A DNA stretch of 64,000 nucleotides from an uncultured Chitinophaga sp. (GTDB lineage Bacteria > Bacteroidota > Bacteroidia > Chitinophagales > Chitinophagaceae). The notes below the pieces were generated by a model. It saw nothing but the letters and a program-made list of their open reading frames with translations, was not told the origin of the DNA and ran no database searches. A program made the translations under genes and the position numbers. The stretch's first letter is position 1. Each line of letters starts with the position of its first letter. Shown in pieces: positions 28,140 to 48,307 of the stretch. Location: positions 9,354 through 73,353 of the forward strand of contig CAYPBW010000001.1 in assembly GCA_964409055.1 (NCBI GenBank). Reading direction: 5' to 3'.

Positions 28140-28155
28140 TTTATTGATTTAAATA

Positions 28156-28200
28156 CAAATTTCAGGTGCAATAATGAAGGCTGTGGTGACATTTGTTACA
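28156..28200 (-). promoter_or_regulatory. P1: CRP-type box plus -7-like element (DUF2892-DUF6132-trx-DUF983 operon)
   Basis: The box GGTGACATTTGTTACA (28185-28200) is followed, 21 nt downstream on the minus strand, by GAAATTTG (28156-28163). The ATG is at 28139. Confidence 0.6.
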
Positions 28201-28231: not shown

Positions 28232-28250
28232 GCAAACCTTACATCAGTGT

Positions 28251-29465: not shown

Positions 29466-29511
29466 CTAAAGTAGTACGGGGGTGCAGCCGGAGGTAGTGA
29501 CAATTGTCACA
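29466..29511 (-). promoter_or_regulatory. P2: CRP-type box plus -7-like element (sqr)
   Basis: The box AGTGACAATTGTCACA (29496-29511) has an inner 14-mer that is a perfect palindrome. TACTTTAG (29466-29473, minus strand) lies after a 22-nt spacer. Confidence 0.6.
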
Positions 29512-29576: not shown

Positions 29577-29621
29577 TGTGACTTTTGTCATTTTGACCGG
29601 CACTATCCGCTGAGAAATTTG
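29577..29621 (+). promoter_or_regulatory. P4: CRP-type box plus -7-like element (PDO-rhodanese 1)
   Basis: The box TGTGACTTTTGTCATT (29577-29592) is followed 21 nt later by GAAATTTG (29614-29621). The ATG comes only at 29765, giving an unusually long leader. Confidence 0.55.
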
Positions 29622-31236: not shown

Positions 31237-31281
31237 TGTGATATTCGTCACGCATCACCACATCTGAGTTGGTTATTTTTG
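31237..31281 (+). promoter_or_regulatory. P5: CRP-type box plus perfect -7 element (thioredoxin 2)
   Basis: The box TGTGATATTCGTCACG (31237-31252) is followed 21 nt later by TATTTTTG (31274-31281, exact TAnnTTTG). The ATG is at 31297. Confidence 0.65.
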
Positions 31282-32345: not shown

Positions 32346-32390
32346 GGTGATAAATATCACCAATTTCGTCAAACACAGCCTTCAAATTTG
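32346..32390. promoter_or_regulatory. P6: shared CRP-type box between the divergent tlpA-like and methyltransferase genes
   Basis: The box GGTGATAAATATCACC (32346-32361) has perfect 6-bp arms. Toward the + gene, CAAATTTG (32383-32390) follows after 21 nt. Toward tlpA there is only a weak CATATTG. The box centre is 53-55 nt from both ATGs. Confidence 0.6.
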
Positions 32391-32406
32391 CCAAAAGAAA
32401 TATAAA

Positions 32407-33591: not shown

Positions 33592-33607
33592 AAACCATTT
33601 TTTAAGG

Positions 33608-34867: not shown

Positions 34868-36180
34868 TTCTTGCTAAGATAAACTTTCCAGATAACAGGT
34901 GATGCCCGGCTTGGCTCTGCTTCATTACTCCAGAAAATATTGGGAGCCCTGCTGTCTATTCCACCTATAATGTAACCTGCTAGTAATGGCTTGGTTCCCA
35001 TTCTTTCTAATTGTAAAATGTCGTTGTTGCTATAGGAAGTTTCGTCCGCAGGTATGAATTCTGCAGCTGCTCCAAAATAGCCGGATAATTGTTCCGGTAA
35101 CAGGTATTCCTTTATGCCAGTTGCATTTCTTTCAACTACACTGATGTGTTTTACAAACGGTACATCATTATCAGTTTTTACTGTGCCAGACTGATCTATA
35201 TATTTCTGTGCAATACCGCCGAAGAAGATAGTATAAAGCGTTTTCTTTATTTTATCGTAAGCAGGTAGTGTAGCAGAATGGTAATGGCTGAATTGTTGAT
35301 TGAAATTTTTAACCTCATTATGATTGTTGGCCGTGATATCAATCAGCGTAGTGTAAGGAAGGTCTTTTTCATATTGAAATACTCCGGAGTAAATGGTCAG
35401 CATTTCCCTGCCATTTTCATCATATTGGTTCAGCAGGTTATAATCTCTCCGGTGCAGCAATGCAGAATCGGTTACTGCGGTGTAATTTTCAATCGCTATC
35501 TCGTTGCCTTTTTCCGTTATTAAGAATTTTCTGATCTGGTTAGTGTATTTTTGACTGAAGCCGGGTCCATGATCGGGTCCATGCGGGTTATAACGGCCAT
35601 CAAATCGTTGTCCGCCCACCAGGTAAAACAAATTATCCAACTTATTCAAATGGCCACCTGTTACGGCCATACGTTCATCTATCAGTTGTGTAATAAATGA
35701 AGTTATATCCGTATTATTAATGATCCCGTCTATCGTTTCTTTTACATTAATTTTTAATAAGGCGGGATGTGTAATATGGTCCCTTTTTGTTTCGCTATAG
35801 CCATAGCCGCCAATAACGATCAGATCATTTTGCTGCTGATAAAACTCCGTATTGCTGCTTTGTAACTGTTCAGCAAGCAGGGCAGGAAAACCGCTTACAG
35901 ATTTTTTCCAGACTTTTTCTGTTTTTACATCCAGAACAATAAGATCAGTGTTATTATGCTTTTTATTAAAGGAAGCAAAAGGTTGCCTGCGATGCAGCCC
36001 GTCCGTTCTTCCGCCAACCAGCAGTATTTTATTCCCTGATTTAGCCCAGGCATACGACTGGAGGCCGGAGAACCCTTCAGGGATCATGGGTTCGAGAGAA
36101 ATCTTATATGGAAAATTTTCCTGGCTAGTTCCTGTCAGGTTCAATAAGATTATTATCAGTGCAGTCAGAAAAGCTTTCAT
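34864..36180 (-). CDS. Secreted six-bladed Kelch-like beta-propeller protein, function unknown
   Basis: 438 aa with a signal peptide. Six blade signatures are spaced about 50-70 aa apart: LLVGGRTDG, LIVIGGYGYS, FYLVGGQRFDG, LTIYSGVFQY, TIFFGGIAQKY, AGYIIGGIDS. Confidence 0.6.
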   Translation of the reverse strand: MKAFLTALIIILLNLTGTSQENFPYKISLEPMIPEGFSGLQSYAWAKSGNKILLVGGRTDGLHRRQPFASFNKKHNNTDLIVLDVKTEKVWKKSVSGFPALLAEQLQSSNTEFYQQQNDLIVIGGYGYSETKRDHITHPALLKINVKETIDGIINNTDITSFITQLIDERMAVTGGHLNKLDNLFYLVGGQRFDGRYNPHGPDHGPGFSQKYTNQIRKFLITEKGNEIAIENYTAVTDSALLHRRDYNLLNQYDENGREMLTIYSGVFQYEKDLPYTTLIDITANNHNEVKNFNQQFSHYHSATLPAYDKIKKTLYTIFFGGIAQKYIDQSGTVKTDNDVPFVKHISVVERNATGIKEYLLPEQLSGYFGAAAEFIPADETSYSNNDILQLERMGTKPLLAGYIIGGIDSRAPNIFWSNEAEPSRASPVIWKVYLSKK

Positions 36181-36201: not shown

Positions 36202-36246
36202 CTAAATTATTGGATTGCTAATAGCCGTGTTGTGATTTTCATCACA
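36202..36246 (-). promoter_or_regulatory. P7: perfect CRP-type box plus -7-like element (Kelch-MFS-DUF3365 operon)
   Basis: The box TGTGATTTTCATCACA (36231-36246) is followed 21 nt downstream by TAATTTAG (36202-36209, minus strand). The ATG is at 36180. Confidence 0.65.
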
Positions 36247-36309: not shown

Positions 36310-36843
36310 TTAATGAGGTAGTTTGCTCCTGAATTTTCCATACACCCAGGTTCCCACAATGGCGCTAAAAAGGGTAACAATAATAACCAATGCACCTGTT
36401 CCGATTTGTGCAAACAGCGGGCCCGGGCAGGCGCCGGTAATAGCCCAGCCAAATCCAAAGATTAAAGCACCATAGATATTACCCTTATTAAACTTCTTAT
36501 CAACAAACTCAATGGGTTCACCATAAATGGTTTTGACTTTGAATTTTTTTATCAGCCACACAGAGATGATACCTACTGCTACTGCAGAACCGATTACACC
36601 AAACATGTGGAAACTCTGGAGCCTGAACATTTCCTGAATTCTGAACCAGGAGATAACTTCTGCTTTAATGAGAATTATTCCAAACAATATTCCAGCTACG
36701 GCATATTTAAGATTATACCACCAGGGATGTTTTAATTCTGACTCGTTAAAACAAACAGCATCTAATGAACGAACTTCAAAATCTGTGTTCTGTGTAAGAA
36801 ATTCATGATGTTTCTTTTCCTGCAATGTTTCATTTACACTCAT
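36310..36843 (-). CDS. YeeE/YedE-family half-transporter (sulfur-compound transport), 177 aa
   Basis: Multi-TM protein with the GWAITGACPGPLFAQIG motif. Confidence 0.8.
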   Translation of the reverse strand: MSVNETLQEKKHHEFLTQNTDFEVRSLDAVCFNESELKHPWWYNLKYAVAGILFGIILIKAEVISWFRIQEMFRLQSFHMFGVIGSAVAVGIISVWLIKKFKVKTIYGEPIEFVDKKFNKGNIYGALIFGFGWAITGACPGPLFAQIGTGALVIIVTLFSAIVGTWVYGKFRSKLPH

Positions 36844-36849
36844 GCTATA

Positions 36850-37413
36850 TTATAATTTTAAAATTAAAGGAAGAATAAGGTTGGCTACAATAAAACCACC
36901 GGTCATAAAACTGATGGTGGCAACCAGTGAGGGCCATTGAAGGTTTGACAAGCCCATAATTGCATGGCCGCTGGTACATCCACCAGCATACCGGGTTCCG
37001 AATCCTACAAGGAATCCACCGACAACCATCATGATAATGCCTTTAGCACTGCTAAGTGCCTGCCAGTTAAATAAATCGGCAGGTACAAAGGAGTCATAGT
37101 TGGTAACACCATAGGTTGCCAGCTCTGCCTGTAATTTTGGATTGACTTGTATGGGTTCAGGATTTCCTAATAAACTAACCGCAAGAAATCCCCCACCTAC
37201 GATTCCTGCAACAAAAAAGAGATTCCATATTTCCTTTTTCCAGTCGTATTGAAAGAAGGGAATCTTTGCGGGTACACAAGCAGCGCATACATGCCGCAGC
37301 GAGGACGATATGCCAAAGGATTTATTACCGATGATGAGTAGTACAGGCACCATAAGGCCTATTAGTGGACCGGCTACATACCAGGGCCAGGGTTGTTTCA
37401 GAAAATCTAACAT
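36850..37413 (-). CDS. YeeE/YedE-family half-transporter, 187 aa
   Basis: Multi-TM protein with the [14 protein letters not shown] motif typical of YeeE/YedE. Confidence 0.8.
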
Positions 37414-37436: not shown

Positions 37437-37481
37437 CAAAATTGATTTTAATTGAAAGTGTAACGAGTGATTTATGTCACA
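37437..37481 (-). promoter_or_regulatory. P8: CRP-type box plus -7-like element (YeeE/YedE pair)
   Basis: The box AGTGATTTATGTCACA (37466-37481) is followed 21 nt downstream by CAATTTTG (37437-37444, minus strand). The ATG is at 37413. Confidence 0.6.
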
Positions 37482-37488
37482 GGTTAAG

Positions 37489-38493
37489 TTATTTCTTTTT
37501 TGCGAGTTCTTCTTTTTGGGCAATGATAGGTTTATAAGGTCCATATTTATGCTGGTTTTCTGAAAATCCATCTGCATAGGGGCCAAACGGATGATCAAAT
37601 GGTTTTTTGGAAATATCCGGCCAGTCATTGCTTAAATCTTTTCCAGGCCTGGGCTGACTATTTACATAAGCTGCCACATCCCAGGCTTCTTCTGTTGTAA
37701 GCTTTGGATTATCATGTGTGGCTTGTTTAAAGGGCATATTACTTTTTACATAACCAGCAAAATTGCTCAGGCGAAACAGACCCGCACCATCATTGTAACT
37801 ATGTTCTCCCCAAAGTGGAGGATATTCATAGCTAACGCCATTCAGAGTGAGCTGCCCCTCGCCGTTTGCTCCGTGACAACTTTGGCACTGTGCAGTGTAC
37901 ACTGCCTTCCCTTTTACCGGATCAGCAGCCCTGTCCAGATAGTTTAATTTAGCAATACCGCTTCCCACAGGTCGTTCTCCCTTCTTAACATCCTTACCCA
38001 ACCATTTGATATAAGCATAAATGGCCTGGTACTCCCTGCTGTTGCTATCGGGAGCACTACCATTCAGGCTTCGTTCAAAACAATCGCCTACTCTCTTATA
38101 AATACTTTCCATACTGCCACTCCTGTCCCGGAACCTTGGATAGGTAGAATAAACAGCGCTGTAATTGTTTCCCCATGTTTTCTTTCCGGCATTGAGGTGA
38201 CAGTTCTGGCAATTCATTCCATTGGTAATAGCAGCAACAGAGCCATGAGGTCCGAAATACCGGGCTGTATTTACAATGATATCTTCACCATAAATAACCT
38301 GTTCTCTTTCTTCTCCCTGCAATTCATTATCAGTAAACAGGCTGGGGGTTACCCAACTGCTGTCTGTAGTTGCAGTTACAAGAGATTTTTTTTCGGATGG
38401 TTTTAACGCTTTTGTAATTTCAATTAAAGCAACTATCCCAACTGCGGCGGCAATAATGACTACCTGCCAGTTTGATCTGATGGTGTTCCACAT
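37489..38493 (-). CDS. Membrane-anchored diheme c-type cytochrome, TsdA (thiosulfate dehydrogenase)/SoxA-like
   Basis: ATG at 38493 (MWNTIRSNWQVVIIAAAVG..., signal anchor). Two CxxCH motifs (CQNCH, CQSCH). A conserved Cys in RVGDCFERSLNG sits between the hemes, where TsdA carries its heme-ligating Cys. SNMPF lies near the C-terminus. Confidence 0.65.
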   Translation of the reverse strand: MWNTIRSNWQVVIIAAAVGIVALIEITKALKPSEKKSLVTATTDSSWVTPSLFTDNELQGEEREQVIYGEDIIVNTARYFGPHGSVAAITNGMNCQNCHLNAGKKTWGNNYSAVYSTYPRFRDRSGSMESIYKRVGDCFERSLNGSAPDSNSREYQAIYAYIKWLGKDVKKGERPVGSGIAKLNYLDRAADPVKGKAVYTAQCQSCHGANGEGQLTLNGVSYEYPPLWGEHSYNDGAGLFRLSNFAGYVKSNMPFKQATHDNPKLTTEEAWDVAAYVNSQPRPGKDLSNDWPDISKKPFDHPFGPYADGFSENQHKYGPYKPIIAQKEELAKKK

Positions 38494-38503
38494 AATTTTT
38501 AGC

Positions 38504-40198
38504 TTATCTGAATTCGTAAGTTGTTCCTTGTAGTTGTGTAAGCAGTGTATGTGGTTGGTCGGTTGCGGTAGCCCGCATTTCCAGTTTTGGTGAAACCGGT
38601 GAGTGTACCTCCAGGTATTCTTCAATAACTGTGTGCATCAATACACCTAGTTTTTTTGGATTTTTTACTTTTTCCATACGGCAAAGTGTATCGTCCGGAT
38701 CGCCTTCTCTTTCACAGGCAACGATGCTGTATTCTTTATCAAGGTTCAGCGGTTCTCCTTTTATCTTCACCCAGTTTACTCTTTTTCCAAACTCATTATC
38801 AATAGTAAAATTCACTTCCATGCCTGCGAATCGCACAAACCAGCCGCCAAAGCGTTTCGACGGATCTTTGGCAAATGCGTTTTGTAATTCTTTTTCCAGC
38901 CAGTCCCAAACCTGCCTGCCGGTAACTGTCCCTGTCTTTGCTTCGCTATCAACAGGCAGCATGTTCCATAAAAACTCTTTGGTGATTTCAGCTTTCCCGG
39001 TTTTTGGATCTACTGCTAATGGTTGACAGAAACGGAAGCCATTGCTTAACGCAATATCTGTTTTGAATTTCCAGTGTATAGCATCAGTAATCAGGTTATC
39101 CATTGGTGTTTCCATTACAAAATATCTTACCAGCGGGGTAGTGGTGGTTCCAATTACTTTGGATAATTGCTGTTTATACGGCGCAGCTGCTTTATCTATC
39201 TGAGCCTGCAATTTTTTATCAGCAGGGTACTTGGCGGGGTCTACATCAAGTAACTGGTATTTGTAACTCTTCATTTTTCCATTTTCCACTTCAATATCCA
39301 GTTTACCAAGAAATGAACCAAAAGCACCGCATTCAACTACTTTGGTGTATTTGCCTTCAATAGGAACTCTTACTCTTTCATGTGTATCTGCACCCAAAAT
39401 GAAATCTGCGCCTGCCACTGCTGAGTTGTTTGCCAGTCCTACTTGTTGCGCCAGGCCCATATGCGTAACAATGAAAATAATTCCGCAGCCTTCCACTTCC
39501 TTTAGCAGTTTAATGTATTTAGCCACATTAAAATCAGCATGTTCAAATCGAATTCCTTCGCTGTAAGCCGGAGACTGACGTTTAGGTATCAGGTGGTCGG
39601 TATAGCCAATGAAACCAACTTTGGCTCCGGCAATATACTTTACCCAATAGGGCGGGTAAATCAATTCGCCATTATCTGTATCGTTAGTTTTATGCCACAT
39701 ATTGGCACAAATCTTTGCTGCCGTGGCATGTCCCATATCATAAAGCATTTTCTTTTTCTTATAGACCACTTCCCAATTGCCCGGAAGAATGAGATCATAA
39801 TTAAAATCGTTGAGCAGGGGTATCAATGCTTCACCTTCTGTCAGTGATGCTACGGCACTTCCATGGAAATAGTCGCCCCCATCCAACAATAGGGTGTTGG
39901 ATGGATTTTGCCTGCGAAAATGATTGATCATGGTTTTTAATACTGCTAACCCGCCTCTCTTTCTGTACACTGCTTTCCCGTTTTCCCAGAAAAATTCATC
40001 GTGGGTATGAAGCTGGGCATGAATATCGGAGGTATAAAGTATTGTAAACCTGCCTGGTGTTCCAGTCTCAGTTTTATTATTTAGCTGTTCTGTAGCAGCT
40101 ATAGCTACTGAACCAAGGGTAGTACCCATGCCTGCCAATGCAGCTTTTTTCAAAAAATCCCGGCGGGAATTAGAATCCATGTTTTTCAATGAAGACAT
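38504..40198 (-). CDS. Tat-exported dinuclear metallophosphoesterase/5'-nucleotidase-fold protein, divergent SoxB-like
   Basis: ATG at 40198. Twin-arginine signal SRRDFLKKAALAGMG. Motifs TSDIHAQ, DGGDYFHGS, GNWE (not the GNHE of UshA type), and C-terminal FGGWFVRFAGMEV...GKRVNWVKIKGEPL. Confidence 0.65.
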   Translation of the reverse strand: MSSLKNMDSNSRRDFLKKAALAGMGTTLGSVAIAATEQLNNKTETGTPGRFTILYTSDIHAQLHTHDEFFWENGKAVYRKRGGLAVLKTMINHFRRQNPSNTLLLDGGDYFHGSAVASLTEGEALIPLLNDFNYDLILPGNWEVVYKKKKMLYDMGHATAAKICANMWHKTNDTDNGELIYPPYWVKYIAGAKVGFIGYTDHLIPKRQSPAYSEGIRFEHADFNVAKYIKLLKEVEGCGIIFIVTHMGLAQQVGLANNSAVAGADFILGADTHERVRVPIEGKYTKVVECGAFGSFLGKLDIEVENGKMKSYKYQLLDVDPAKYPADKKLQAQIDKAAAPYKQQLSKVIGTTTTPLVRYFVMETPMDNLITDAIHWKFKTDIALSNGFRFCQPLAVDPKTGKAEITKEFLWNMLPVDSEAKTGTVTGRQVWDWLEKELQNAFAKDPSKRFGGWFVRFAGMEVNFTIDNEFGKRVNWVKIKGEPLNLDKEYSIVACEREGDPDDTLCRMEKVKNPKKLGVLMHTVIEEYLEVHSPVSPKLEMRATATDQPHTLLTQLQGTTYEFR

Positions 40199-40231
40199 CG
40201 GCAATCGTTTTAGGTGAAAAATTACAAGAAT

Positions 40232-40276
40232 TAAAAATGCTTTCTTTAAGCAACCCGGTTCGTGACTACAGTCACA
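40232..40276 (-). promoter_or_regulatory. P9: CRP-type box plus weak -7-like element (soxB-like / tsdA-like operon)
   Basis: The box CGTGACTACAGTCACA (40261-40276) is followed 21 nt downstream by CATTTTTA (40232-40239, minus strand). Confidence 0.55.
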
Positions 40277-40295: not shown

Positions 40296-41714
40296 TTAAA
40301 ACTGGTAATTTAAAACAATGTTCCAAAGACTCATATCTGCTTTATTGATAACGTATTTGTCGTTTCCGTAACTACTGCCTGTTTTTCCTTTATAAACATA
40401 CAGCAGTTGCGTTTCCAGACCCTTTAATATACCGCCAAATTTATAGCGGGCATCAATATTCAACTGGTTATATGAGGGCATTCCATATTTATTGAACCTG
40501 AAATCCGTTACATCCGGCAACTCATAATGCCCGAAGGCTATTGAAGTTGTGATCCTGGCCTTCGGTATTTTGTAATTGACTTTGCCCACCACAGCATGTG
40601 CATCTCCCAGCCCTTCATTTCTTTCTCTCGGTAAAAAGGTGAAGAAAGGATCCCGGCCCCATTCTCTCGGCATAAGGTATCTTCCTTGAGCAGTAATACG
40701 GTTATAGTTCAGGCTTGTTTCCCATTTTTCATACTTCCATCCCAGCCTGGTTCCGAAAGTTATTGCCCTGGCACCCTTTTCAACATAGGCTTTTGAAGGA
40801 TCATTATTGCCACCATCCTTTACTGCATCCTGCCTTATAAACTGTGCCGCTGCAAAAAGCTTTGAATTTTTGGATATCGGATATTCATAATCTGCCTGCA
40901 GCATAGCACTGTTAAAGATATTTTCTGTGTATTGGTTCCAAAACTGGAGTTTTAACTGGTCATTTATTTGGGTAGTAATGCCGGCCAGAAAAATTCCTTT
41001 GCTTTCCAGGTTTCCGGCATATTCAGATTTTATACCCTCATCATTTACCCCCACAGGATATACCCCGATAGACTCTGCTACGTTAAACCACTTAACTGTA
41101 CTTCTGGGCGAAATGCCGTATAAATATCCAAACTGCAACCTGAGTTTTTTTATAGAGTTCATTTCTGTCCAGATACCTTCCACTTCTGTCGGCCTCATCC
41201 GGCCATCCTGCAGGTTAATAAAAGGAGTATTGATCAGTTGTTTACCAAGGGTAATGTGATTGTTACTAAAGTGATACTTGATATATAATTCTTCCAAGCG
41301 GTCAATATCTTTTTTATTAGCAGGGTCTTCAATATCGAACAACCCCGTTTCGTACCTGTTCATTTGTTTGGTTTTGGAATCAGGCACGGAAAGGTCGGAG
41401 GAGCCAATATTATAAACAAAAAATCCGCTCACCCCCACCTGGAAATTCTTAAACCTGCCTGTTTCAAATTTTATTCCGCCTCCCACTGCGTTGGCATAAT
41501 AATCTGTCAGTCCCTCTTTATTATCTGTTGCCATAAAATAATACCGGAAATGGCCACTGAATGTGCCCTTTCTGAATGCGGATAAAATCGAAGTGGAATC
41601 AGCTTCGCTCTCTTTTTCCTTCCATAAACCCGGTTTCTCATTTATCTCCTGGTGCTGTGTATATCCTGGAAGTGAAATCACTATTGCAGTGATGAGTATG
41701 AGAATCTTCTTCAT
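40296..41714 (-). CDS. Outer-membrane beta-barrel porin (OprD-like)
   Basis: 472 aa with a signal peptide, alternating beta-strand pattern throughout, and a C-terminal ...VLNYQF aromatic terminus. Confidence 0.65.
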   Translation of the reverse strand: MKKILILITAIVISLPGYTQHQEINEKPGLWKEKESEADSTSILSAFRKGTFSGHFRYYFMATDNKEGLTDYYANAVGGGIKFETGRFKNFQVGVSGFFVYNIGSSDLSVPDSKTKQMNRYETGLFDIEDPANKKDIDRLEELYIKYHFSNNHITLGKQLINTPFINLQDGRMRPTEVEGIWTEMNSIKKLRLQFGYLYGISPRSTVKWFNVAESIGVYPVGVNDEGIKSEYAGNLESKGIFLAGITTQINDQLKLQFWNQYTENIFNSAMLQADYEYPISKNSKLFAAAQFIRQDAVKDGGNNDPSKAYVEKGARAITFGTRLGWKYEKWETSLNYNRITAQGRYLMPREWGRDPFFTFLPRERNEGLGDAHAVVGKVNYKIPKARITTSIAFGHYELPDVTDFRFNKYGMPSYNQLNIDARYKFGGILKGLETQLLYVYKGKTGSSYGNDKYVINKADMSLWNIVLNYQF

Positions 41715-41767
41715 TACGCTGTACGCATTATGTTTTTGAATAATTGGGGAACAGTCTGTTTCTGGAA

Positions 41768-42199
41768 TCAGAAACCGGCTTTTATATAACTCCAGCCTTG
41801 TTCTTGTTTTCGTACGATTTCGCCGATTCCCATTTTTACAAAAGTGGCTTCTGCTATGATGGTCTCTTTAGGAATTTTTCGCTCCATCATGGTGTTTTCG
41901 CAGGCAATGAACGTAATACCCATTTGTTTGAAATGGCTGATCTTTTCCTGTTGCGTTGTTTTGCCTTTTGTCAGAAAATCAAGACCCGGGCCATGCGCCA
42001 CAACTTCTATTACCACACTGTCGCCCCATCCGGCTTTAAGGTGCTTCAGGTTATTCATCAACCCTTTCCATACCAATGTATCGTTACTGCTTAACTGCAT
42101 TACAATACGATGCTGTGAAACCGTTCCACTTGTGTTTTGAGCCCATCCCTGCAATGCAAATAAGGATATAATGGCAGCCAGTCTGATTCTTTTGTGCAT
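41768..42199 (-). CDS. Exported DsrE/DsrF-like family protein
   Basis: ATG at 42199 gives MHKRIRLAAIISLFALQGWAQ (Sec signal). RIVMQLSS...IEVVAHGPGLDFL...FIACENTM matches the DsrE-like fold and Cys position. Confidence 0.65.
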   Translation of the reverse strand: MHKRIRLAAIISLFALQGWAQNTSGTVSQHRIVMQLSSNDTLVWKGLMNNLKHLKAGWGDSVVIEVVAHGPGLDFLTKGKTTQQEKISHFKQMGITFIACENTMMERKIPKETIIAEATFVKMGIGEIVRKQEQGWSYIKAGF

Positions 42200-42216
42200 A
42201 GTTGTTGAATTTGGTG

Positions 42217-42639
42217 TTATTGTTCCTTTGCTCCGGTCCAATTAGTATAGCCACCATTCAGGTCATACAGTTTTGTAAAACCCATTTCTTTCATGATGCT
42301 CATGGCGTCTATACTTCTTTTTCCACTGCGGCAATAGACCAGGTATGTTTTGTTCTTGTCGAGGCTTGAAATCTGTGCTTTGAACTCTTCTTTTTTTAGC
42401 ACATCAATTTGTGTAGCATGGGGTATATGGCCAGCTTTATATTCATCTGTTGTCCTTACATCCAGCACAACGGTGTTCTTTTTCTTGCTGAGCCGTTCAA
42501 ATTTTTTCTGACTTATTGTTTTGCCTGCCGGATTATCCTGGGCTTGTGCGCAAACAGAACCACATAAGCCAGCCAGCATTAAGGCTGCAGCAATAAATAA
42601 CCAACTGATGCTTTTTATTTTTTTTAGTATAGTACTCAT
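42217..42639 (-). CDS. Exported single-domain rhodanese
   Basis: 140 aa with a signal peptide (…CGSVCAQAQD) and active loop CRSGKRS. Confidence 0.85.
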   Translation of the reverse strand: MSTILKKIKSISWLFIAAALMLAGLCGSVCAQAQDNPAGKTISQKKFERLSKKKNTVVLDVRTTDEYKAGHIPHATQIDVLKKEEFKAQISSLDKNKTYLVYCRSGKRSIDAMSIMKEMGFTKLYDLNGGYTNWTGAKEQ

Positions 42640-42947
42640 GCTATTTTAGTTATCAGACTATTCCAGGGGCCTCCGTTATAGGCCTCAATACCGGCAGATT
42701 TCAGTATGCCTTTTGCCATTCCGCTACGGGCACCGCTTCTGCATACAGTGATTACAGGTTTATTCAGCTTTTTAAGTTCAGCTATTTTAGTACGTATGCT
42801 GTCAAGCGGATAGTTTTTTGATCCGGGAATATGCCCTGATTTGTACTCACCAGCAGACCGAACATCTATTATAACAGCCCCCTTACCGATAAGCTCTTTG
42901 TAGTTGACAGAAGTTCCTCCAAATAGTTTCTTTAAAAATCCAATCAT
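42636..42947 (-). CDS. Single-domain rhodanese (cytoplasmic)
   Basis: 103 aa with active loop CRSGARS. 4-nt overlap with the next gene. Confidence 0.85.
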   Translation of the reverse strand: MIGFLKKLFGGTSVNYKELIGKGAVIIDVRSAGEYKSGHIPGSKNYPLDSIRTKIAELKKLNKPVITVCRSGARSGMAKGILKSAGIEAYNGGPWNSLITKIA

Positions 42948-42958
42948 TGTTTTTAGTA

Positions 42959-43240
42959 TTAATTTAATAAGAATTGCATATCTCCTAAACCACCGCCGTT
43001 ATATACTTCAGTAATACCATTTTGTTTCAGAATGCTTACTGCCATTCCGCTCCTGTTGCCGCTGCGGCAATAGAGCACTATAGGCGTTTTTATTTCTTTG
43101 AGTTCCTTTATCTTGTACATGACCTCTTCCAGGGGAATATTTTTGGCTCCGGGTACATGTTCCATGTCAAATTCCCACGGACTTCTTACATCGACAATTA
43201 CTGTCTCTGATTTTTTTATTATCTCTTTTAATGACTGCAT
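42959..43240 (-). CDS. Single-domain rhodanese (cytoplasmic)
   Basis: 93 aa with active loop CRSGNRS. Confidence 0.85.
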   Translation of the reverse strand: MQSLKEIIKKSETVIVDVRSPWEFDMEHVPGAKNIPLEEVMYKIKELKEIKTPIVLYCRSGNRSGMAVSILKQNGITEVYNGGGLGDMQFLLN

Positions 43241-43259
43241 TGCTTTTTTAGTTTTAAAA

Positions 43260-43286
43260 AAGCGGCTGTTGTTATGGCAGCCGCTT
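43260..43286 (-). terminator. Hairpin between prx and the rhodanese block
   Basis: aagcggctg-ttgttatgg-cagccgctt. On the minus strand it is followed by ttttttaaaac, only 21 nt before the rhodanese ATG. Confidence 0.5.
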
Positions 43287-43290
43287 GGTT

Positions 43291-43941
43291 TTATAATGTT
43301 TTTTTGGCTAAGTACCAGTCCACCTTTTCTACCGTGTCGTCAGCTAGCCTTGCTTCGTAATCAGCCAACGTTTTAGGTGGGGGTACGATTACTTTGTCAC
43401 CCGGTTCCCAGTTAAGAGGGATTGCCACTTTGTTAGCATCGCTTGTTTGCAATGCAAGCAGCACTCTTTTTATTTCATGCATATTCCTGCCAACGTTCAG
43501 CGGGTAATACATGATAAGGCGAATCGTTCCCTTAGGGTCTATAAAAAATACGGCTCTTACGGCAGCAGTTTCGCTTTCATTGGGTTGCAGCATGCCGTAT
43601 AACTTGGCTACTTTCATGTCCAGGTCGGCTATGATGGGAAATTGGAAATACACACCGGTGTTTTTTTTCACATTATCAACCCAGGCAATATGTGAATGAA
43701 CACTGTCGATACTTAACCCTATCAGTTTAGTATTATGCTTGTCAAAGAAGCTTTCCTGTTCCATTGCAAAGCCGCTCATTTCTGTTGTACATACGGGTGT
43801 GAAATCGGCAGGGTGTGAGAACAGGATCACCCAACTATCTTTTGCATAGTCTGAAAACTTGATCACTCCTTTGGTAGTAACAGCCGAGAAGTCAGGAGCT
43901 TTATCACCTATCCTTGGCATTGTTATAGTATTTGGTTCCAT
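43291..43941 (-). CDS. 1-Cys peroxiredoxin (Prx6 type)
   Basis: 216 aa with the FTPVCTTE peroxidatic Cys motif and no resolving-Cys motif. Confidence 0.9.
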   Translation of the reverse strand: MEPNTITMPRIGDKAPDFSAVTTKGVIKFSDYAKDSWVILFSHPADFTPVCTTEMSGFAMEQESFFDKHNTKLIGLSIDSVHSHIAWVDNVKKNTGVYFQFPIIADLDMKVAKLYGMLQPNESETAAVRAVFFIDPKGTIRLIMYYPLNVGRNMHEIKRVLLALQTSDANKVAIPLNWEPGDKVIVPPPKTLADYEARLADDTVEKVDWYLAKKTL

Positions 43942-43971
43942 GTTTTGATTTTTAATTGATTTTTTAATAAG

Positions 43972-43991
43972 GCCGGGGAAGATTCCCCGGC
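43972..43991 (-). other. GC-rich hairpin without U-tract between PDO-rhodanese 2 and prx
   Basis: gccgggga-agat-tccccggc forms a perfect 8-bp stem. It resembles the hairpin at 36260-36281. No T-run follows on the minus strand. Confidence 0.4.
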
Positions 43992-44023
43992 ACTTTTACC
44001 TTAACCATTAAACCAACCAACAT

Positions 44024-45442
44024 TTATAATAGTGTCGAAGGACACACATAGTCGCTTATTTTGAACTTACCACTTTCTTTCAGTGCCTTGAAACCGCTTT
44101 TTACATCAACCAGGTTGTCAAATCCCCTGGCACGGAGAATTGAGTTGAATATCATAGAGCGATAACCACCGGCACAATGAACATAATAGGTCTTTTTCTT
44201 ATCGATCTGGGCCATGCTGTCGTTGATAAAGTCAAGTGGTGCATTTTCTGCTTCTACCAGGTGTTCACTCAGGTATTCACTTTTTTTACGGACGTCAAGA
44301 ATGTTTATCTTTTCTTTCTGTGATATGTCCGCAAGTTCATCTGCAGTTACAGATTTAATCATATCAACTTCCTTTCCGGCATTTTTCCAGGCATTGAAAC
44401 CACCTTTCAGGTAACCAATGGTAAAATCATAACCGACCCTGGCTAATCTTGTTACTACTTCTTCTTCACGACCCTCGTCAGTTACAAGTAATATTTCCTG
44501 TTTGATATCGGGAATCATAGCGCCAACCCATGGGGCAAACTGGCCATCAATACCAATATTTATTGAGTTAGGAACAAAGCCCAGCGCAAATGTTTGCGGA
44601 TCTCTTGTATCCAGTACTAATGCACCGGTTTCATTGGCTGCAGTTTCAAAAGCATCCGGACTTAAGGCATGCTGACCTCTTTCGAGCACTTTATCAATAC
44701 TGTCATACCCTTGTATATTCATCATCACATTCAGCGGGAAATAAGCAGGAGGAGCAACAAGCCCTGTTGTAACTTCTTTGATGAATTCTTCTTTGGTCAT
44801 ATTTGCCCGGAGTGCATAATTTGTTTTTTTCTGATTGCCCAGTGTATCAGTTGTTTCTTTACTCATGTTTTTGCCACAGGCACTGCCAGCACCGTGGGCA
44901 GGATATACGGTAATATCATCAGCCAGTGGCATGATCTTATTTCGGAGAGAGTCAAACAAATAACCGGCTAATTTATCCTGTGTAAGGTCGGCTGCCACTT
45001 TCTGTGCAAGGTCAGGACGACCTACATCACCGATAAACAATGTATCACCGGAGAACAAACCAACATCCTTACCGTTTTCATCTTTCAGCAGGTAGCAGGT
45101 ACTTTCCATCGTATGACCGGGAGTATGCAGTACTTTCAATGTTACATTGCCTACTTTAAATTCCTGGCCATCTTCAGCAATCAGTGCATCAAAGGCAGGT
45201 TTAGCATTTGGACCGTACACAATGGGTGCGCCGGTTTTTTTGCTAAGGTCAAGGTGACCGCTGACAAAGTCGGCATGAAAGTGTGTTTCAAAAACGTACT
45301 TGATCTTTGCATTGTTACGTTCAGCCTTTTGGATATAAGGCTCTACCTCACGCAGCGGATCAATTACAACAGCTTCACCATTACTCTCGATGTAATAAGC
45401 ACCTTGTGCCAAGCAACCGGTATAAATTTGTTCTACTTTCAT
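44024..45442 (-). CDS. Persulfide dioxygenase (MBL fold) fused to two rhodanese-like domains (CstB-like), copy 2
   Basis: 472 aa, colinear with copy 1 and roughly 65-70% identical by eye, with the same ETHFHADFVSGH and HCAGGYRS motifs. Confidence 0.85.
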   Translation of the reverse strand: MKVEQIYTGCLAQGAYYIESNGEAVVIDPLREVEPYIQKAERNNAKIKYVFETHFHADFVSGHLDLSKKTGAPIVYGPNAKPAFDALIAEDGQEFKVGNVTLKVLHTPGHTMESTCYLLKDENGKDVGLFSGDTLFIGDVGRPDLAQKVAADLTQDKLAGYLFDSLRNKIMPLADDITVYPAHGAGSACGKNMSKETTDTLGNQKKTNYALRANMTKEEFIKEVTTGLVAPPAYFPLNVMMNIQGYDSIDKVLERGQHALSPDAFETAANETGALVLDTRDPQTFALGFVPNSINIGIDGQFAPWVGAMIPDIKQEILLVTDEGREEEVVTRLARVGYDFTIGYLKGGFNAWKNAGKEVDMIKSVTADELADISQKEKINILDVRKKSEYLSEHLVEAENAPLDFINDSMAQIDKKKTYYVHCAGGYRSMIFNSILRARGFDNLVDVKSGFKALKESGKFKISDYVCPSTLL

Positions 45443-45474: not shown

Positions 45475-45519
45475 CAAATTTCGGATCTGGAAACATGCTG
45501 AACAGTGACATCAATCACA
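45475..45519 (-). promoter_or_regulatory. P10: CRP-type box plus -7-like element (PDO-rhodanese 2, probably with prx)
   Basis: The box AGTGACATCAATCACA (45504-45519) is followed 21 nt downstream by GAAATTTG (45475-45482, minus strand). The ATG is at 45442. Confidence 0.6.
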
Positions 45520-45520
45520 A

Positions 45521-46330
45521 TCAATGCCCACCGCCACCGGGGAAGAATAACTCTTTAACAATTATATAAATACCCATTACGAGTACAAACCAACCGAACC
45601 CTTTTTTCAGGCCATCAGCAGATACTTTTTTACTGAGTGCATTACCAATGAAAATCCCAACAATGGCAAGACCGGTAACGGACAGTAAAAGTGTCCAGTC
45701 CATGTTTTGTTTGCCAAGGTCACCGGTGAACCCGATTAGTGATTTTGCAGCTATGATTAATAGAGAAGTTCCCACTGCCTGTTTCATTGGCAGCTTACTC
45801 AGTAACACCAATGCCGGGATAATTAGGAAACCGCCTCCGGCACCCACTAACCCTGTGAGCATACCTACCACAGCGCCTTCCAGTAGTATCATTGGATAAT
45901 TGAATTTTTGCTCGCCAGTTTCTTCCGATTTCCCTTTTTTGTTCCTGATCATAGATACAGAAGCAAATACCATCAAAATGGCAAACAGTATCATCATCAG
46001 CAATGATTTAGTTACAACAAAATCACCGATATGAAATACTTCTTTGGGAATGGCGGGTACAAGGAAGGCTCTTGTTGCAAACACTGCTATAATCGAAGGG
46101 ATACCGAAGATGAGAGCAGTTTTCAGGTTCACTTCACCGCTTTTATATTTCGGGTAAGTGCCTACCAGGCTGGTAGCCCCTACAATAAAAAGTGAATAAG
46201 CGGTGGCAAGTACGGGGTTTACCCCAAAAAGATAAACGAGAACAGGTACAGTAAGAATAGAACCGCCTCCGCCAATTAAGCCAAGAGAAACACCGATCAG
46301 AAGAGAAGCTATGTATCCGATTATTTCCAT
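45521..46330 (-). CDS. TauE/SafE family sulfite/anion exporter
   Basis: ATG at 46330 (MEIIGYIASLLIGVSLGLIGGGGSILTVP), 269 aa, about 8 TM segments with an internal repeat. Confidence 0.85.
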   Translation of the reverse strand: MEIIGYIASLLIGVSLGLIGGGGSILTVPVLVYLFGVNPVLATAYSLFIVGATSLVGTYPKYKSGEVNLKTALIFGIPSIIAVFATRAFLVPAIPKEVFHIGDFVVTKSLLMMILFAILMVFASVSMIRNKKGKSEETGEQKFNYPMILLEGAVVGMLTGLVGAGGGFLIIPALVLLSKLPMKQAVGTSLLIIAAKSLIGFTGDLGKQNMDWTLLLSVTGLAIVGIFIGNALSKKVSADGLKKGFGWFVLVMGIYIIVKELFFPGGGGH

Positions 46331-46346
46331 GCAAAATTTATTTATG

Positions 46347-46391
46347 CAAAGGTGAACGGAATACAATTGCTGTACTGTGACTCAAATCACA
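46347..46391 (-). promoter_or_regulatory. P11: perfect CRP-type box plus -7-like element (tauE)
   Basis: The box TGTGACTCAAATCACA (46376-46391) is followed 21 nt downstream by CACCTTTG (46347-46354, minus strand). The box starts 8 nt after the regulator stop codon. Confidence 0.65.
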
Positions 46392-46398: not shown

Positions 46399-47016
46399 CT
46401 ACAATAATTCGATCATATTTCTGTGCAGCTTGAGCAGGTTGCGCTGCTCCATTTTTTTTAAGAGTCTTGAAATTACTTCTCTCGAACTATTCAGGTCATC
46501 GGCTATCTGCTGGTGAGAAGTTTCAATTATCTTTTTCCCTGTAGTATCGGCATGCCTTTTCAGGTAGAATTCAAGTCTCTCATCCATATTTCGAAAGGCC
46601 ACATTGTCAATCACAGCCAACAATTCATCAAAACGGTTTCTGTAGGTCATAATGACAAACTGATACCATGTTTTGTATTTGTTCATCATATCATCCATCA
46701 ACTGGATGGGTATCATGAGGACTTCTGTATCTTCTTCAGCTTTTGCCATAATCTCACTTTGCTGTGACTGTATGGCACAGATCATTGTAACAGCACAAGC
46801 CTGGCCCGGTCCTAAATAATACATCAGAAATTCTCCGCCATCAGGATTTTCCCGGTAGATCTTTACCCTGCCTTCCAATACCAAAGCCGTGGATTTAATA
46901 TACTGGCCGGTACGCATAATGATTTCTCCCGCAAGAAAGGTTCTTTGCACCGCCTCTTTTTCAATCAGCTCAATTAAGCCGGGCTCAAACTGCGGAAATA
47001 GTTCTTTCCAATTCAT
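46399..47016 (-). CDS. Crp/Fnr family transcriptional regulator (205 aa)
   Basis: N-terminal beta-roll effector domain, a long dimerisation helix, and the C-terminal HTH ETSHQQIADDLNSSREVISRLLKKME with R-E-x-x-S-R. Its only two Cys lie in GPGQACAVTMICAI. Confidence 0.9.
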   Translation of the reverse strand: MNWKELFPQFEPGLIELIEKEAVQRTFLAGEIIMRTGQYIKSTALVLEGRVKIYRENPDGGEFLMYYLGPGQACAVTMICAIQSQQSEIMAKAEEDTEVLMIPIQLMDDMMNKYKTWYQFVIMTYRNRFDELLAVIDNVAFRNMDERLEFYLKRHADTTGKKIIETSHQQIADDLNSSREVISRLLKKMEQRNLLKLHRNMIELL

Positions 47017-47026: not shown

Positions 47027-48307
47027 TTAATTATCTAAAACTTTTTCCATTTGCATACTTCTGCTGCCTTTGATAAGCATATGTGTATGCTCGAAATGTT
47101 GTTCACTCAACCAGCCTGTTACGTCGCTTGAAGTAGCGAAAGTAATGAAAGGGTGGTCAAATCTCAGAAAATCACCGCCTACTAATACAACGGCTTTCCA
47201 GTCATGTTGTTTGATCAGGTCAACGATGTCTTTATGTTCCTGCATACTTTCATTGCCTAATTCTGCCATGGCGCCAAGTATAAGCACTTTGTTTTCCGTA
47301 TCAATTTTTGCAAGGTTTTCAATAGCAAGCCGCATACTACTCGGGTTGGCATTGTAAGCATCAAGGATGATTTTGTTTGTTCCTTTTTCAAGAAGCTGAG
47401 ATCTGCTATTAGAAGGGTTGTAGTTTTCAATTGCCAATTTTATAGCCGAATCTTTTACACCAAAATACTTTCCGGCTGTTACAGCCGTCAACACATTTGG
47501 CAGATTATAATCTCCTACAAGATTTGTGTGAATGGTGCCGCATGCCGAGCCCTTAGTAATATTTACCACAAGAAACGGCTCACTTTTGATTGCTGATCCT
47601 TCAATGTCTGCATTGACTGTTCCATATTTAGTTATATGCTCAATTCCCTTACTCATTTCCTGCAGGTAGTCATAATCCCACATCACAAAGGCAGTACCTT
47701 TATTCTCTCTTAAATAATCATAGAGCTCACCTTTACCTTTCCTTACCCCTTCCACTCCGCCAAAGCCTTCCAGGTGGGCTTTACCGCAGTTGGTAATAAG
47801 CCCATGGGTGGGCTTTGTATAAAGGCAATAACCGGCGATTTCCTTTTGGTGATTGGCCCCCATTTCAATTACGGCCAGCTCAGCGTCTTTTTTGATTTTT
47901 AATATAGTCAGCGGGATACCTATATGATTGTTGAGGTTACCCTCCGTTGTATAAGTTCTAAAAGTTGATGACAGTACAGCATGCACCAGTTCTTTGGTGG
48001 TGGTTTTGCCATTACTTCCTGTAATAGCCAGGAAAGGTATATTGAACTGCTCCCGGTGATATTTTGCCAGTTGCTGCAGGGCTGTAAGTACATCTTTAAC
48101 CAGGATGGTTTTTCCCGGAATTTCAAATTCTTTTTCGTCAATAACAGCATAAGCAGCGCCTGACTCAATGGCTTTTTTTGCAAAACTGTTTCCATTGAAA
48201 TGGTCTCCTTTTAATGCAAAGAAAATATCCCCGGGATTGAGTTTCCGGGTATCCGTTTGCACTGAAGGGTGCTGCTCAAATAATTGGTAAAGTTCTTCAA
48301 TTAGCAT
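47027..48307 (-). CDS. murF: UDP-N-acetylmuramoyl-tripeptide--D-alanyl-D-alanine ligase
   Basis: 426 aa with P-loop AITGSNGKTTTKE and typical MurF C-terminal blocks (DAYNANP). Confidence 0.9.
   Translation of the reverse strand: MLIEELYQLFEQHPSVQTDTRKLNPGDIFFALKGDHFNGNSFAKKAIESGAAYAVIDEKEFEIPGKTILVKDVLTALQQLAKYHREQFNIPFLAITGSNGKTTTKELVHAVLSSTFRTYTTEGNLNNHIGIPLTILKIKKDAELAVIEMGANHQKEIAGYCLYTKPTHGLITNCGKAHLEGFGGVEGVRKGKGELYDYLRENKGTAFVMWDYDYLQEMSKGIEHITKYGTVNADIEGSAIKSEPFLVVNITKGSACGTIHTNLVGDYNLPNVLTAVTAGKYFGVKDSAIKLAIENYNPSNSRSQLLEKGTNKIILDAYNANPSSMRLAIENLAKIDTENKVLILGAMAELGNESMQEHKDIVDLIKQHDWKAVVLVGGDFLRFDHPFITFATSSDVTGWLSEQHFEHTHMLIKGSRSMQMEKVLDN

Follow-up and report, generated by a model that had tools for sequence, protein, structure and literature searches.

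A CRP/FNR-fold regulator with an invariant cysteine in the former cAMP pocket as a candidate sensor for a sulfide- and persulfide-oxidation island

The sulfur island of the 64-kb window (the whole stretch of DNA analyzed here) lies beside the gene for a CRP/FNR-fold protein which, judged by the boxes in front of the island genes, is its evident regulator. The reading that fits best, to which we would give roughly even chances, is that of a class II CRP/FNR-fold activator of a sulfide/persulfide-oxidation regulon, in which C74 senses sulfane sulfur, optionally with C80 as its resolving partner; we infer the activator sign, the nature of the signal, and the chemistry at the cysteines. Specifically, a dimeric factor of this fold would activate a sulfide- and persulfide-oxidizing regulon that spans about 19 kb and includes SQR, two CstB-like persulfide dioxygenase (PDO)-rhodanese fusions, free rhodaneses, DsrE, TauE, YeeE, a SoxB-like protein with cytochrome c, thioredoxins, and a peroxiredoxin.

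Fold of the regulator and its remodeled pocket

A preliminary description of this DNA had taken the protein for a CRP-family regulator, and the fold bears this out. Both PF00027 (cNMP_binding; residues 25-114, E=8e-14) and PF13545 (HTH_Crp_2; residues 147-204, E=4e-9) score above their cut-offs, while CsoR, ArsR, or Fis/AAA+ folds are absent from the Pfam matches, which are to CRP-family domains only. The AlphaFold2 model (mean pLDDT 88.6) has beta strands at residues 23-103, a long dimerization helix at 115-140, and an HTH at 168-191, that is, the superfamily architecture of beta-roll, long dimerization helix, and Crp-type winged HTH. The best Foldseek matches of this model were PDB 3dv8 (rank 1), T. 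thermophilus CAP, and E. coli CRP, with a probability of 1.00 against CRP, NtcA, and FNR; our statements on geometry rest on the secondary structure of the model and on the alignment to CRP. In the recognition helix, for which a CRP-like R-E...R reading had been suggested, R179, E180, and R184 indeed align with CRP R180, E181, and R185 (hhalign), and R179 never varies in an alignment of 115 sequences, where conservation of V181, S183, and R184 reaches at least 90%. The closest solved relative is 3dv8 itself (EUBREC_1222 of Eubacterium rectale; phmmer E=2e-19), which has both cysteines in the same columns but is a Firmicute structural-genomics entry without known function. A related clostridial homologue adjoins a NifB/NifX-like gene.

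The likeness to E. coli CRP extends from the fold and recognition helix to the TGTGA-N6-TCACA-type palindrome and a class II box near -41, whereas the ligand pocket and the promoters differ. The cAMP contacts are lost in the hhalign alignment (G71A, E72T, R82S, S83E, T127L, and S128L, at regulator residues 75, 77, 87, 88, 132, and 133, respectively), an invariant cysteine is present in the pocket, and the promoters carry Bacteroidetes -7 elements. A cAMP or cGMP receptor was ruled out by the replacement of these contact residues, and the NCBIfam CRP equivalog gives the regulator 43 bits against a cut-off of 266. The preliminary description had the cAMP-contacting Arg replaced by Gln; the Arg is absent, but the Gln lies one residue off, and Arg82 corresponds to the family-conserved Ser87 (hhalign). 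In FNR, three N-terminal cysteines and C122 ligate a [4Fe-4S] cluster. Residues 1-73 of the regulator hold no cysteine, so that an FNR-type N-terminal cluster is lacking, as had been proposed, and the regulator reaches 27.6 bits with the NCBIfam Fnr model (cut-off 228). An Fe-S cluster was also rejected, only one cysteine being invariant. Thus, the regulator shares the CRP fold but is neither FNR nor a cAMP receptor.

The regulator gene starts 10 nt after the murF stop codon (47027-47029), and the 400 nt upstream of it contain no box at up to two mismatches, in agreement with the earlier statement that the gene lacks one. Read-through from murF probably supplies the protein constitutively.

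Boxes, promoters, and neighboring genes

The palindrome TGTGA-N6-TCACA, at up to one mismatch, occurs nine times in the window versus 2.1 expected, and none of 100 shuffles reached nine, which rejects a chance origin. Ten GTGA-N6-TCAC boxes stand 52-70 nt 5' of the start codons of sulfide/persulfide-oxidation genes (27.4-46.4 kb; Table 1), as would suit the earlier proposal that the boxes of the island belong to this regulator; the tauE start codon (ATG at 46330) was set after comparing the N-termini of homologues. Redox genes of the island comprise a peroxiredoxin, two thioredoxins, and a TlpA-like redoxin.

Table 1. Features of the regulator and the sulfur island (positions in the window)
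Feature	Position	Strand	Basis or remark
Regulator CDS, 205 aa, CRP/FNR fold	46399..47016	-	ORF list; PF00027 + PF13545; AlphaFold2; Foldseek
cNMP-binding-like beta-roll sensor domain, residues 25-114, without cAMP-contact residues	46675..46944	-	Pfam; hhalign vs E. coli CRP
C74 codon (TGT), proposed sensing cysteine, just before the phosphate-binding-cassette helix; aligns with CRP I70	46795..46797	-	Sequence; hhalign; DSSP
C80 codon (TGT), second cysteine, last turn of the cassette helix; clade-specific	46777..46779	-	Sequence; 141 representatives
Recognition helix SREVISR, residues 178-184	46465..46485	-	Sequence; hhalign vs CRP
Box TGTGACTCAAATCACA, tauE	46376..46391	.	Starts 8 nt past the regulator stop codon; center 53.5 nt upstream of the tauE ATG
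TauE/SafE-family anion exporter, predicted first target gene	45521..46330	-	PF01925 E=2e-47
Box upstream of the PDO-rhodanese operon	45504..45519	.	Box search
Operon: CstB-like persulfide dioxygenase with two rhodanese stretches, 1-Cys peroxiredoxin, three rhodaneses, DsrE-like protein, OprD-like porin	40296..45442	-	Pfam
Box upstream of the SoxB-like/cytochrome c pair (37489-40204)	40261..40276	.	Box search
Box upstream of split YeeE/DUF6691 transporter genes (36310-37413)	37466..37481	.	Box search
Box upstream of 438-aa unknown protein, MFS transporter, and Tll0287-like protein (33019-36180)	36231..36246	.	Box search
Relaxed box (GGTGATAAATATCACC) between divergent TlpA-like redoxin and TPMT/TehB-like methyltransferase genes	32346..32361	.	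Relaxed search
Box upstream of thioredoxin (31297-31671)	31237..31252	.	Box search
Weaker box facing PDO-rhodanese number 2 (29765-31189, plus)	29577-29592	.	Box search
Box upstream of the SQR gene (28251-29447, minus)	29496..29511	.	Box search
Relaxed box upstream of two small membrane-protein genes and a thioredoxin gene (27388-28139, minus)	28185..28200	.	Relaxed search

The spacing of the boxes gives a clue to the sign of regulation. Each of the seven strict boxes has behind it an nAnnTTTG -7-like element, which starts 29-30 nt from the box center and is recognized by its match to the Bacteroidetes promoter consensus TTG-N17-23-TAnnTTTG (as quoted in 10.1101/172254). Because each box keeps a fixed distance from this element, its center falls near -41, which is class II activator geometry, and the GTGA-N6-TCAC boxes would there replace the -33 promoter element. 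The same spacing recurs in 80 orthologous loci, all from close relatives (79-97% identity), these being what a single-protein genome scan returned and what we used for synteny and boxes: the regulator is syntenic with sulfur genes in all 80, a box occupies the tauE-side position downstream of it in 78, and among 210 boxes TTTG follows 25 nt past the box in 80, versus at most 7 at any other offset except offset 14 (14 boxes). Distant clades of the family have a GTAAC-N4-GTTAC variant with the spacing to -7 unchanged, and a box lies within 150 nt downstream of the stop codon in 38 of 78 regulators (0.03 expected), of which 34 keep the -7 spacing. In the alphaproteobacterial loci, the strict TGTGA-N6-TCACA was not found between the regulator and its downstream operon. 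Enriched in the window, kept in orthologues, and seen family-wide, the boxes are predicted binding sites of the palindromic CRP/FNR type and, together with the promoter geometry, point to an activator of the island, as the preliminary description had it.

The regulator family, apparently widespread and unstudied, keeps similar company elsewhere. It comprises about 180 clusters at 50% identity that score E<1e-30. Plasmid tblastn with one-cysteine and CC-type representatives added no records to the earlier plasmid matches. Across Bacteroidota, the neighbors are TauE, PDO, YeeE, or SulP operons; in Pontibacter, Spirosoma, and Cryomorphaceae, the regulator is followed by TauE, PDO-rhodanese, and YeeE, and in Paracoccus, Thioclava, and Ruegeria by DUF2892, YeeE, DUF6691, PDO, a sulfurtransferase, and SulP. 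Adjacency to sulfur genes is also seen on plasmids of two phyla, and 40 of 54 metagenomic members have co-directional sulfur genes within 3.5 kb. Members from Chondrinema, Pusillibacter, and Bacillus, some of them with two cysteines, stand in contexts without an obvious sulfur link; the Bacillus one-cysteine homologue adjoins an AhpD-like carboxymuconolactone decarboxylase gene.

Gene content also bears on a more general reading, quite improbable in our judgment, in which C74 would be a switch responding broadly to thiol oxidation or electrophiles (peroxide, disulfide stress), in the manner of FLP, FixK2, or OhrR, with the sulfur genes forming part of a redox-stress regulon. The peroxiredoxin, two thioredoxins, and TlpA-like redoxin would suit it, as would the AhpD-like neighbor in Bacillus, and FixK2 is reportedly a CRP/FNR member regulated through cysteine oxidation (PMC9104804). 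Yet the core neighbors in two phyla are SQR, PDO, rhodanese, TauE, and YeeE rather than catalase or Ahp, and a simple disulfide is disfavored by the i/i+6 pair across the helix, probably too distant for one.

The pocket cysteine and its possible signal

C74 and C80 are the only cysteines of the regulator and lie in the pocket region on either side of most of the cassette helix (residues 75-82 in the model, DSSP), much as had been described from the sequence. In the hhalign register, C74 directly precedes CRP G71-E72, and in the model it sits at an allosteric hot-spot of the CRP fold. It is present in 138 of 141 representatives (31-62% identity to the query), and in 115 diverse homologues, with a mean column identity of 31%, C74 and R179 are the only invariant columns. 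This conservation, equal to that of the DNA-reading arginine, and the position at the hot-spot speak against the idea that the cysteines are structural or incidental and that the regulator is constitutive or controlled by its abundance, a partner protein, or an unrelated ligand. That idea, which could draw on the missing box, the apparent co-transcription with murF, and the three representatives without C74, we regard as the least probable of those weighed here.

Whether the pair is conserved, a check asked for at the outset, has a divided answer. Both cysteines are kept in 80/80 syntenic orthologues, which are close relatives and not independent observations, and six of six alphaproteobacterial PDO-linked homologues examined (~30% identity) carry two cysteines and no more, again at these two columns; but of the 141 representatives, 29 have C80 only, 19 C81 only, 45 both, and 45 neither. 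Among metagenomic members, sulfur-type neighbors flank 9 of 12 with one cysteine, compared with 24 of 34 with C74, C80, and C81 and 7 of 8 with C74 and C80; TauE or PDO itself stands beside 3 of the 12, and in two one-cysteine members (L152 and L162) that cysteine is the only one anywhere in the sequence. Since the second cysteine is missing in 45/141 and the same operons are still flanked, C74 alone counts as the invariant element. For the same reason, a polysulfide bridge between C74 and C80, the mechanism first envisaged, cannot be the general one: as a third of the family apparently governs operons of this type without a second cysteine, bridging is dispensable, and a one-cysteine persulfide switch must be postulated for those members. 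Where both cysteines exist, the i/i+6 pair may or may not be bridged by S3-S4.

On the sulfane-sulfur reading, C74, the N-cap residue of the phosphate-binding-cassette helix, would be the one around which the cyclic-nucleotide pocket was rebuilt. SQR would supply sulfane sulfur, as persulfides or polysulfides, that attacks C74 and converts it to a persulfide; in two-cysteine members, C80 would then resolve this persulfide to a C74-Sn-C80 link. Covalent modification of the cassette would stand in for the cAMP binding of CRP, repositioning the C-helix and HTH for DNA binding and activation, and a thioredoxin of the regulon could reset the switch.

The rest of the pocket, with S87 in 117 and S/T77 in 130 of the 141 representatives and R128 (equivalent to CRP R123) at least 90% conserved among 115 sequences, fits a non-covalent anionic ligand equally well. 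One may thus envisage a small sulfur oxyanion or other low-molecular-weight ligand (sulfite, thiosulfate, or free persulfide) bound reversibly in the cassette, with C74 contacting it or forming an S-sulfonate with sulfite; we consider this unlikely, though the most credible of the alternatives. The small polar residues would be retained for the anion, the commonest adjacent genes encode anion transporters (TauE, SulP, YeeE, and DUF2892), sulfite is the product of persulfide dioxygenase, and one-cysteine members would work without a partner. However, plain anion recognition would not usually call for an invariant cysteine, a second cysteine that varies between i+6, i+7, and absence looks more like a resolving cysteine than a ligand contact, and SQR, which acts upstream of sulfite, is in the regulon. 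To our knowledge, moreover, the cst and bigR operons share the gene content of the island, and all known dedicated regulators sense persulfides through cysteines, those of equivalent operons responding to persulfide and not sulfite.

The position of C74 also recalls R. rubrum CooA, whose heme ligands are Cys75/His77 and the N-terminus, and C74 could be a thiolate ligand of a heme or metal, placed like the heme of CooA, at which H2S/HS- is sensed directly. Against an approximate CooA sequence, C74 aligns with F74, one residue before the ligand C75, and T77 aligns with H77; a one-cysteine subclade has His-His two turns past the cysteine (...CIMSFLAGIHHDTS). Heme bound to SqrR/YgaV has recently been reported to be implicated in sulfide sensing (PMC12344995). 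Still, the CooA match is displaced by one residue, the cassette helix kept by the regulator family is missing from CooA, the sensor domain has no conserved second axial ligand (His, Met, or N-terminus), C74 being its sole invariant residue in 115 sequences, and the 1-Cys/2-Cys/CC pattern is typical of thiol switches. A heme or metal site therefore seems to us a slim prospect.

Relation to known sensors

If C74 does sense sulfane sulfur, the closest functional parallels lie outside the CRP fold. Like the regulator, CstR (CsoR family) and SqrR/BigR (ArsR family) stand beside tauE, cstB-like PDO-rhodanese, sqr, and sulfurtransferase genes and have conserved cysteines (a pair in the regulator's own clade), and the alphaproteobacterial homologues occupy the position of BigR in bigR-blh operons. 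These proteins are, however, repressors of unrelated fold, whereas the regulator is a predicted activator; they join cysteines from distant segments or subunits, whereas its pair is intrahelical (i/i+6), with one member universal and a putative chemistry. FisR (sigma-54, Cupriavidus sqr-pdo) is likewise an activator of sulfide-oxidizing genes, thought to sense sulfane sulfur via cysteines, but the regulator lacks an AAA+ or sigma-54 interaction domain (Pfam) and its boxes show sigma-A class II geometry instead.

Within the fold, thiol-regulated CRP/FNR members include L. casei FLP (C5-C102 disulfide), CprK (C11-C200), and FixK2 (C183), which share with the regulator an activity set, here putatively, by cysteine chemistry. 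Their cysteines lie in the N-terminus, beta-8, or HTH rather than at the phosphate cassette, their response is to oxidation and mostly an off-switch, and none is known to be tied to sulfur-oxidation operons; an FLP-type C5/C102 pairing is not seen, the regulator having no N-terminal cysteine and its pair at 74/80. The combination of an invariant sensing cysteine with an optional resolving one has its match in 1-Cys and 2-Cys OhrR (MarR family), which differ in fold, in signal (organic peroxide), and in being repressors.

The preliminary description had held that a CRP-fold persulfide sensor would be a new class. Full-text literature searches found no CRP-family persulfide sensor, and a review dated August 2026 gives the CsoR, ArsR, and Fis families as the dedicated persulfide sensors; a Halomonas paper containing both terms is about denitrification regulators, and a Chlorobaculum preprint only speculates on a CRP-like motif. 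In its widest form, our proposal is that the CRP/FNR subfamily found across Bacteroidota, Alpha-, and Gammaproteobacteria makes up a fourth structural class among the dedicated sensors of reactive sulfur, and within these the first class II activator, with C74 persulfidation as a covalent pseudo-ligand mimicking the cyclic nucleotide and with one- and two-cysteine lineages that parallel OhrR. This we put forward tentatively, as somewhat more apt to fail than to hold.

Sulfide and persulfide genes (SQR, persulfide dioxygenase, and TauE) are widespread in heterotrophs, and their regulation is understood only where CstR, SqrR/BigR, or FisR is present; in Bacteroidota and on many Rhodobacterales plasmids and chromosomes, a CRP-type protein fills the regulator slot instead. 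Were that protein a true sensor, it would explain how sulfide detoxification is switched on in a dominant group of soil, sludge, freshwater, and marine bacteria, and its regulon would be readily predictable from the box and the constant distance between box and -7 element. It would also mean that the CRP fold allows its cyclic-nucleotide pocket to become a covalent thiol switch, and would supply an activator-type part for sulfide/polysulfide biosensors. This family of regulators, with its invariant cysteine in the old cAMP pocket, may thus represent a new structural class of bacterial sulfur sensor.

Cassette residues of a CRP/FNR-superfamily regulator

The regulator belongs to the CRP/FNR superfamily: a Pfam run found cNMP_binding and HTH_Crp_2 domains in its ORF, in line with the CRP family named in the preliminary description. 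The translated ORF likewise bears out C74 and C80 as the only cysteines of the whole protein and SREVISR (residues 178-184) as its recognition helix. Because no cysteine lies ahead of residue 74, the absence of an FNR-type cluster also holds, and FNR was rejected as an identity, as were CRP proper, whose cAMP-contact residues are not found, and FLP, whose defining features were tested and are lacking.

When 115 family members are aligned as a profile with E. coli CRP, C74 corresponds to I70, immediately ahead of G71-E72 at the start of the phosphate-binding cassette, while T77, S87, E88 and L132/L133 correspond to E72, R82, S83 and T127/S128. These substitutions at cAMP-contact columns show that the cAMP determinants are lost. 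The earlier reading that the cAMP-contacting arginine is gone thus stands, but not its replacement by glutamine, as it is the conserved Ser87 that aligns there and not Gln86. One rival explanation is that S/T77, S87 and R128 reversibly bind an anion, for example sulfite or thiosulfate.

A confident AlphaFold2 model (mean pLDDT 88.6) comprises a beta-roll, a short helix (75-82) that is the counterpart of the phosphate-binding-cassette helix, a long C-helix (115-140) and the HTH. In it, C74 is the N-cap residue directly ahead of helix 75-82, a position that on general chemical grounds would favour a reactive thiolate, and C80 lies within the final turn. Such an i/i+6 pair is probably too distant across the helix for a plain disulfide; by analogy with SqrR, an S3-S4 link might suit it. 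Foldseek placed first 3dv8, a structural-genomics protein of unknown function with both cysteines present, followed by CRP, CLP, NtcA and FNR. C74 also aligns beside the haem ligand C75 of CooA, which would fit a further rival explanation, a haem or metal cofactor carried on C74; however, no second ligand is conserved in the family.

Conservation and genomic context across phyla

In Chitinophagaceae and their relatives, 80 species-level genomes (79-97% identity) keep the order murF, regulator, tauE, PDO-rhodanese, and the expected conservation of both cysteines was found in 80/80, which is weak evidence taken alone, since these genomes are closely related. HMMER, run exhaustively over 1.84 billion cluster representatives, returned 181 proteins at E<1e-30, and conservation was assessed in 141 representatives of full length, whose identity to the regulator is 31-62%. 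C74 is present in 138 of the 141, and the second cysteine follows the clades: 29 have C80 alone, 19 have C81 alone, 45 have both and 45 have neither. Across the 115-sequence alignment, with a mean column identity of 31%, no column is invariant apart from those of C74 and of the DNA-reading arginine R179. The alignments thus point to one invariant pocket cysteine as the family hallmark, in a pattern reminiscent of a fixed sensing cysteine whose resolving partner is optional. The observation behind the proposed persulfide sensor is confirmed and its interpretation partly supported, the putative two-cysteine bridge being bound to clades. Rival explanations for these residues are a general thiol-oxidation switch and cysteines without any sensory role.

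As judged from gene order, the family is tied to sulfur-oxidation operons across phyla. Plasmids of Pontibacter (52% identity) and Spirosoma (40%) carry regulator, TauE, PDO-rhodanese and YeeE; a Cryomorphaceae genome carries regulator, SulP, PDO-rhodanese, YeeE, DUF6691 and a second PDO-rhodanese; and in Azospirillum and Thiothrix the regulator is followed by DUF2892. Plasmids of Paracoccus, Thioclava and Ruegeria (28-32% identity) keep regulator, PDO and SulP in order with variable genes: among six alphaproteobacterial loci, DUF2892, next to the regulator, is absent in two, YeeE and DUF6691 occur ahead of PDO in three, and a TIGR01244 sulfurtransferase is annotated between PDO and SulP in four. 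All six PDO-linked alphaproteobacterial regulators have their sole two cysteines in the C74 and C80 columns. In 80 metagenomic loci with diverse members, 24/34 regulators with C74, C80 and C81 are followed within 3.5 kb by sulfur genes in the same direction, as are 7/8 with C74 and C80 and 9/12 with C74 only; two of the C74-only proteins (L152, L162), which contain no other cysteine at all, adjoin TauE and PDO genes. In Persicobacter a gene for a PatB C-S lyase lies ~2.3 kb downstream, and neighbours in Chondrinema, Bacillus (an AhpD-like gene) and Pusillibacter have no obvious sulfur link.

A one-cysteine subclade from metagenome loci (L113, L118, L132, L133, L139, L152, L156, L157, L162, L170) shares the motif ...GESCIMSFLAG(I/L)HH(D/E)xS, with His-His or a His pair ~8-9 residues past the invariant cysteine that could, by its sequence, ligate metal or haem there. 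At loci L121 (5920-10819) and L153 (5920-10524), a single operon of TauE, PDO-rhodanese and rhodanese lies between two paralogous regulators, a three-cysteine form (C74+C80+C81) upstream and a one-cysteine form downstream, an arrangement that suggests two different signals or steps read at one locus.

Operator boxes and the predicted regulon

The window contains nine TGTGA-N6-TCACA boxes with no more than one mismatch where 2.1 are expected, a count reached in 0/100 shuffles, and 7/9 of these boxes fall within 29.5-46.4 kb. Two more sites, at 28185 and 32346, match the relaxed pattern GTrAy-N4-rTyAC, and each site lies 52-70 nt from a downstream plausible start codon. All seven strict boxes have a downstream nAnnTTTG element starting 29-30 nt from the box centre. 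Across the 80 orthologous loci, 78 of which have a box just past the regulator stop codon, TTTG stands exactly 25 nt past 80 of 210 boxes; other offsets account for at most seven boxes each, save offset 14 with 14. TAnnTTTG is the -7 element of Bacteroidetes (10.1101/172254 quotes the consensus); taken with this spacing, it puts the predicted box centre at ~ -41, in place of the -33 element, as at class II promoters activated by CRP/FNR proteins. The rigid spacing from box to -7 is our ground for an activator role, and there is moderate support for activation as the sign of regulation. In distant clades the box becomes GTAAC-N4-GTTAC with unchanged spacing to the -7 element; between regulator and DUF2892/YeeE/PDO operon on the Paracoccus, Thioclava and Ruegeria plasmids (L085-L094) no TGTGA-N6-TCACA was found, and these homologues retain an REV(I/V)SR helix.

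Features of the regulator and of its predicted regulon
Feature	Position	Strand	Detail
Regulator CDS	46399..47016	minus	ORF, 205 aa
cNMP_binding domain	regulator residues 25-114		Pfam
HTH_Crp_2 domain	regulator residues 147-204		Pfam
Two small membrane-protein genes, then thioredoxin gene	27388-28200 with box		relaxed box 28185-28200
SQR gene			own box upstream
Thioredoxin gene			own box upstream
TlpA-like redoxin / TPMT/TehB-like methyltransferase	32346-33000 region	divergent	relaxed palindromic box between
438-aa protein, MFS transporter, Tll0287-like protein	33019-36180		own box
Split YeeE/DUF6691 transporter			box upstream
SoxB-like protein and cytochrome c	37489-40204		box upstream
CstB-like PDO-rhodanese, peroxiredoxin, three rhodaneses, DsrE, porin			one box upstream
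TauE gene			box upstream

The regulator is strongly assigned to this sulfide/persulfide-oxidation regulon. The island reaches further left than strict boxes suggest: past the SQR stop codon come a terminator-like hairpin (~28205-28235) and the leftmost relaxed box, behind which lie an 84-aa membrane protein without a Pfam match, a DUF6132 protein and thioredoxin. Two paralogous PDO-rhodanese fusions of ~470 aa and CstB-like architecture (44024-45442 and 29765-31189) have separate boxes, and tandem copies recur in several relatives (L018, L020, L160, L175). The second gene is faced by a weaker box, TGTGACTTTTGTCATT (two mismatches, 29577-29592), at the usual spacing to the -7-like AAATTTGT, which would leave a 5' leader of ~150 nt. 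The SoxB-like thiosulfohydrolase has a TAT signal and scores 258 bits against the TIGR04486 cut-off of 550, its cytochrome c partner has weak SoxA similarity, and no soxYZ or soxCD genes occur near 37489-40204; the pair thus forms a Sox module, either incomplete or divergent, with a box of the regulator type. The methyltransferase, which could methylate sulfide or selenide, appears part of the regulon; the 438-aa protein has only a below-threshold Kelch match, and the Tll0287-like protein (PF11845) has a CxxCH motif.

A candidate sensor of reactive sulfur

The regulator ATG lies 10 nt past the murF stop codon and the 400 nt upstream hold no box at up to two mismatches, in keeping with the preliminary description. 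We propose that the regulator would be constitutively present as a class II activator of the island and that sulfane sulfur acting on C74 would switch it, with C80 as the partner cysteine in this clade as well as the alphaproteobacterial one. A covalent change at the cassette would replace cyclic-nucleotide binding, and the thioredoxins of the regulon could reset the protein. We infer the signal and the C74 chemistry from the invariance of this cysteine, from where it sits and from the parallel with cst and bigR operons.

CstR, SqrR/BigR and FisR resemble the regulator in gene position and in the genes controlled, its own control being predicted; however, they have no fold in common with it, and its predicted action is activation, not repression. 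According to a review of August 2026, dedicated sensors of reactive sulfur belong to the CsoR, ArsR and Fis superfamilies; its sole mention of Crp is as a protein persulfidated in A. baumannii. In the part of the journal literature covered by full text, no description of the family was found. The regulator is thus a candidate CRP-fold, activator-type sensor of reactive sulfur.
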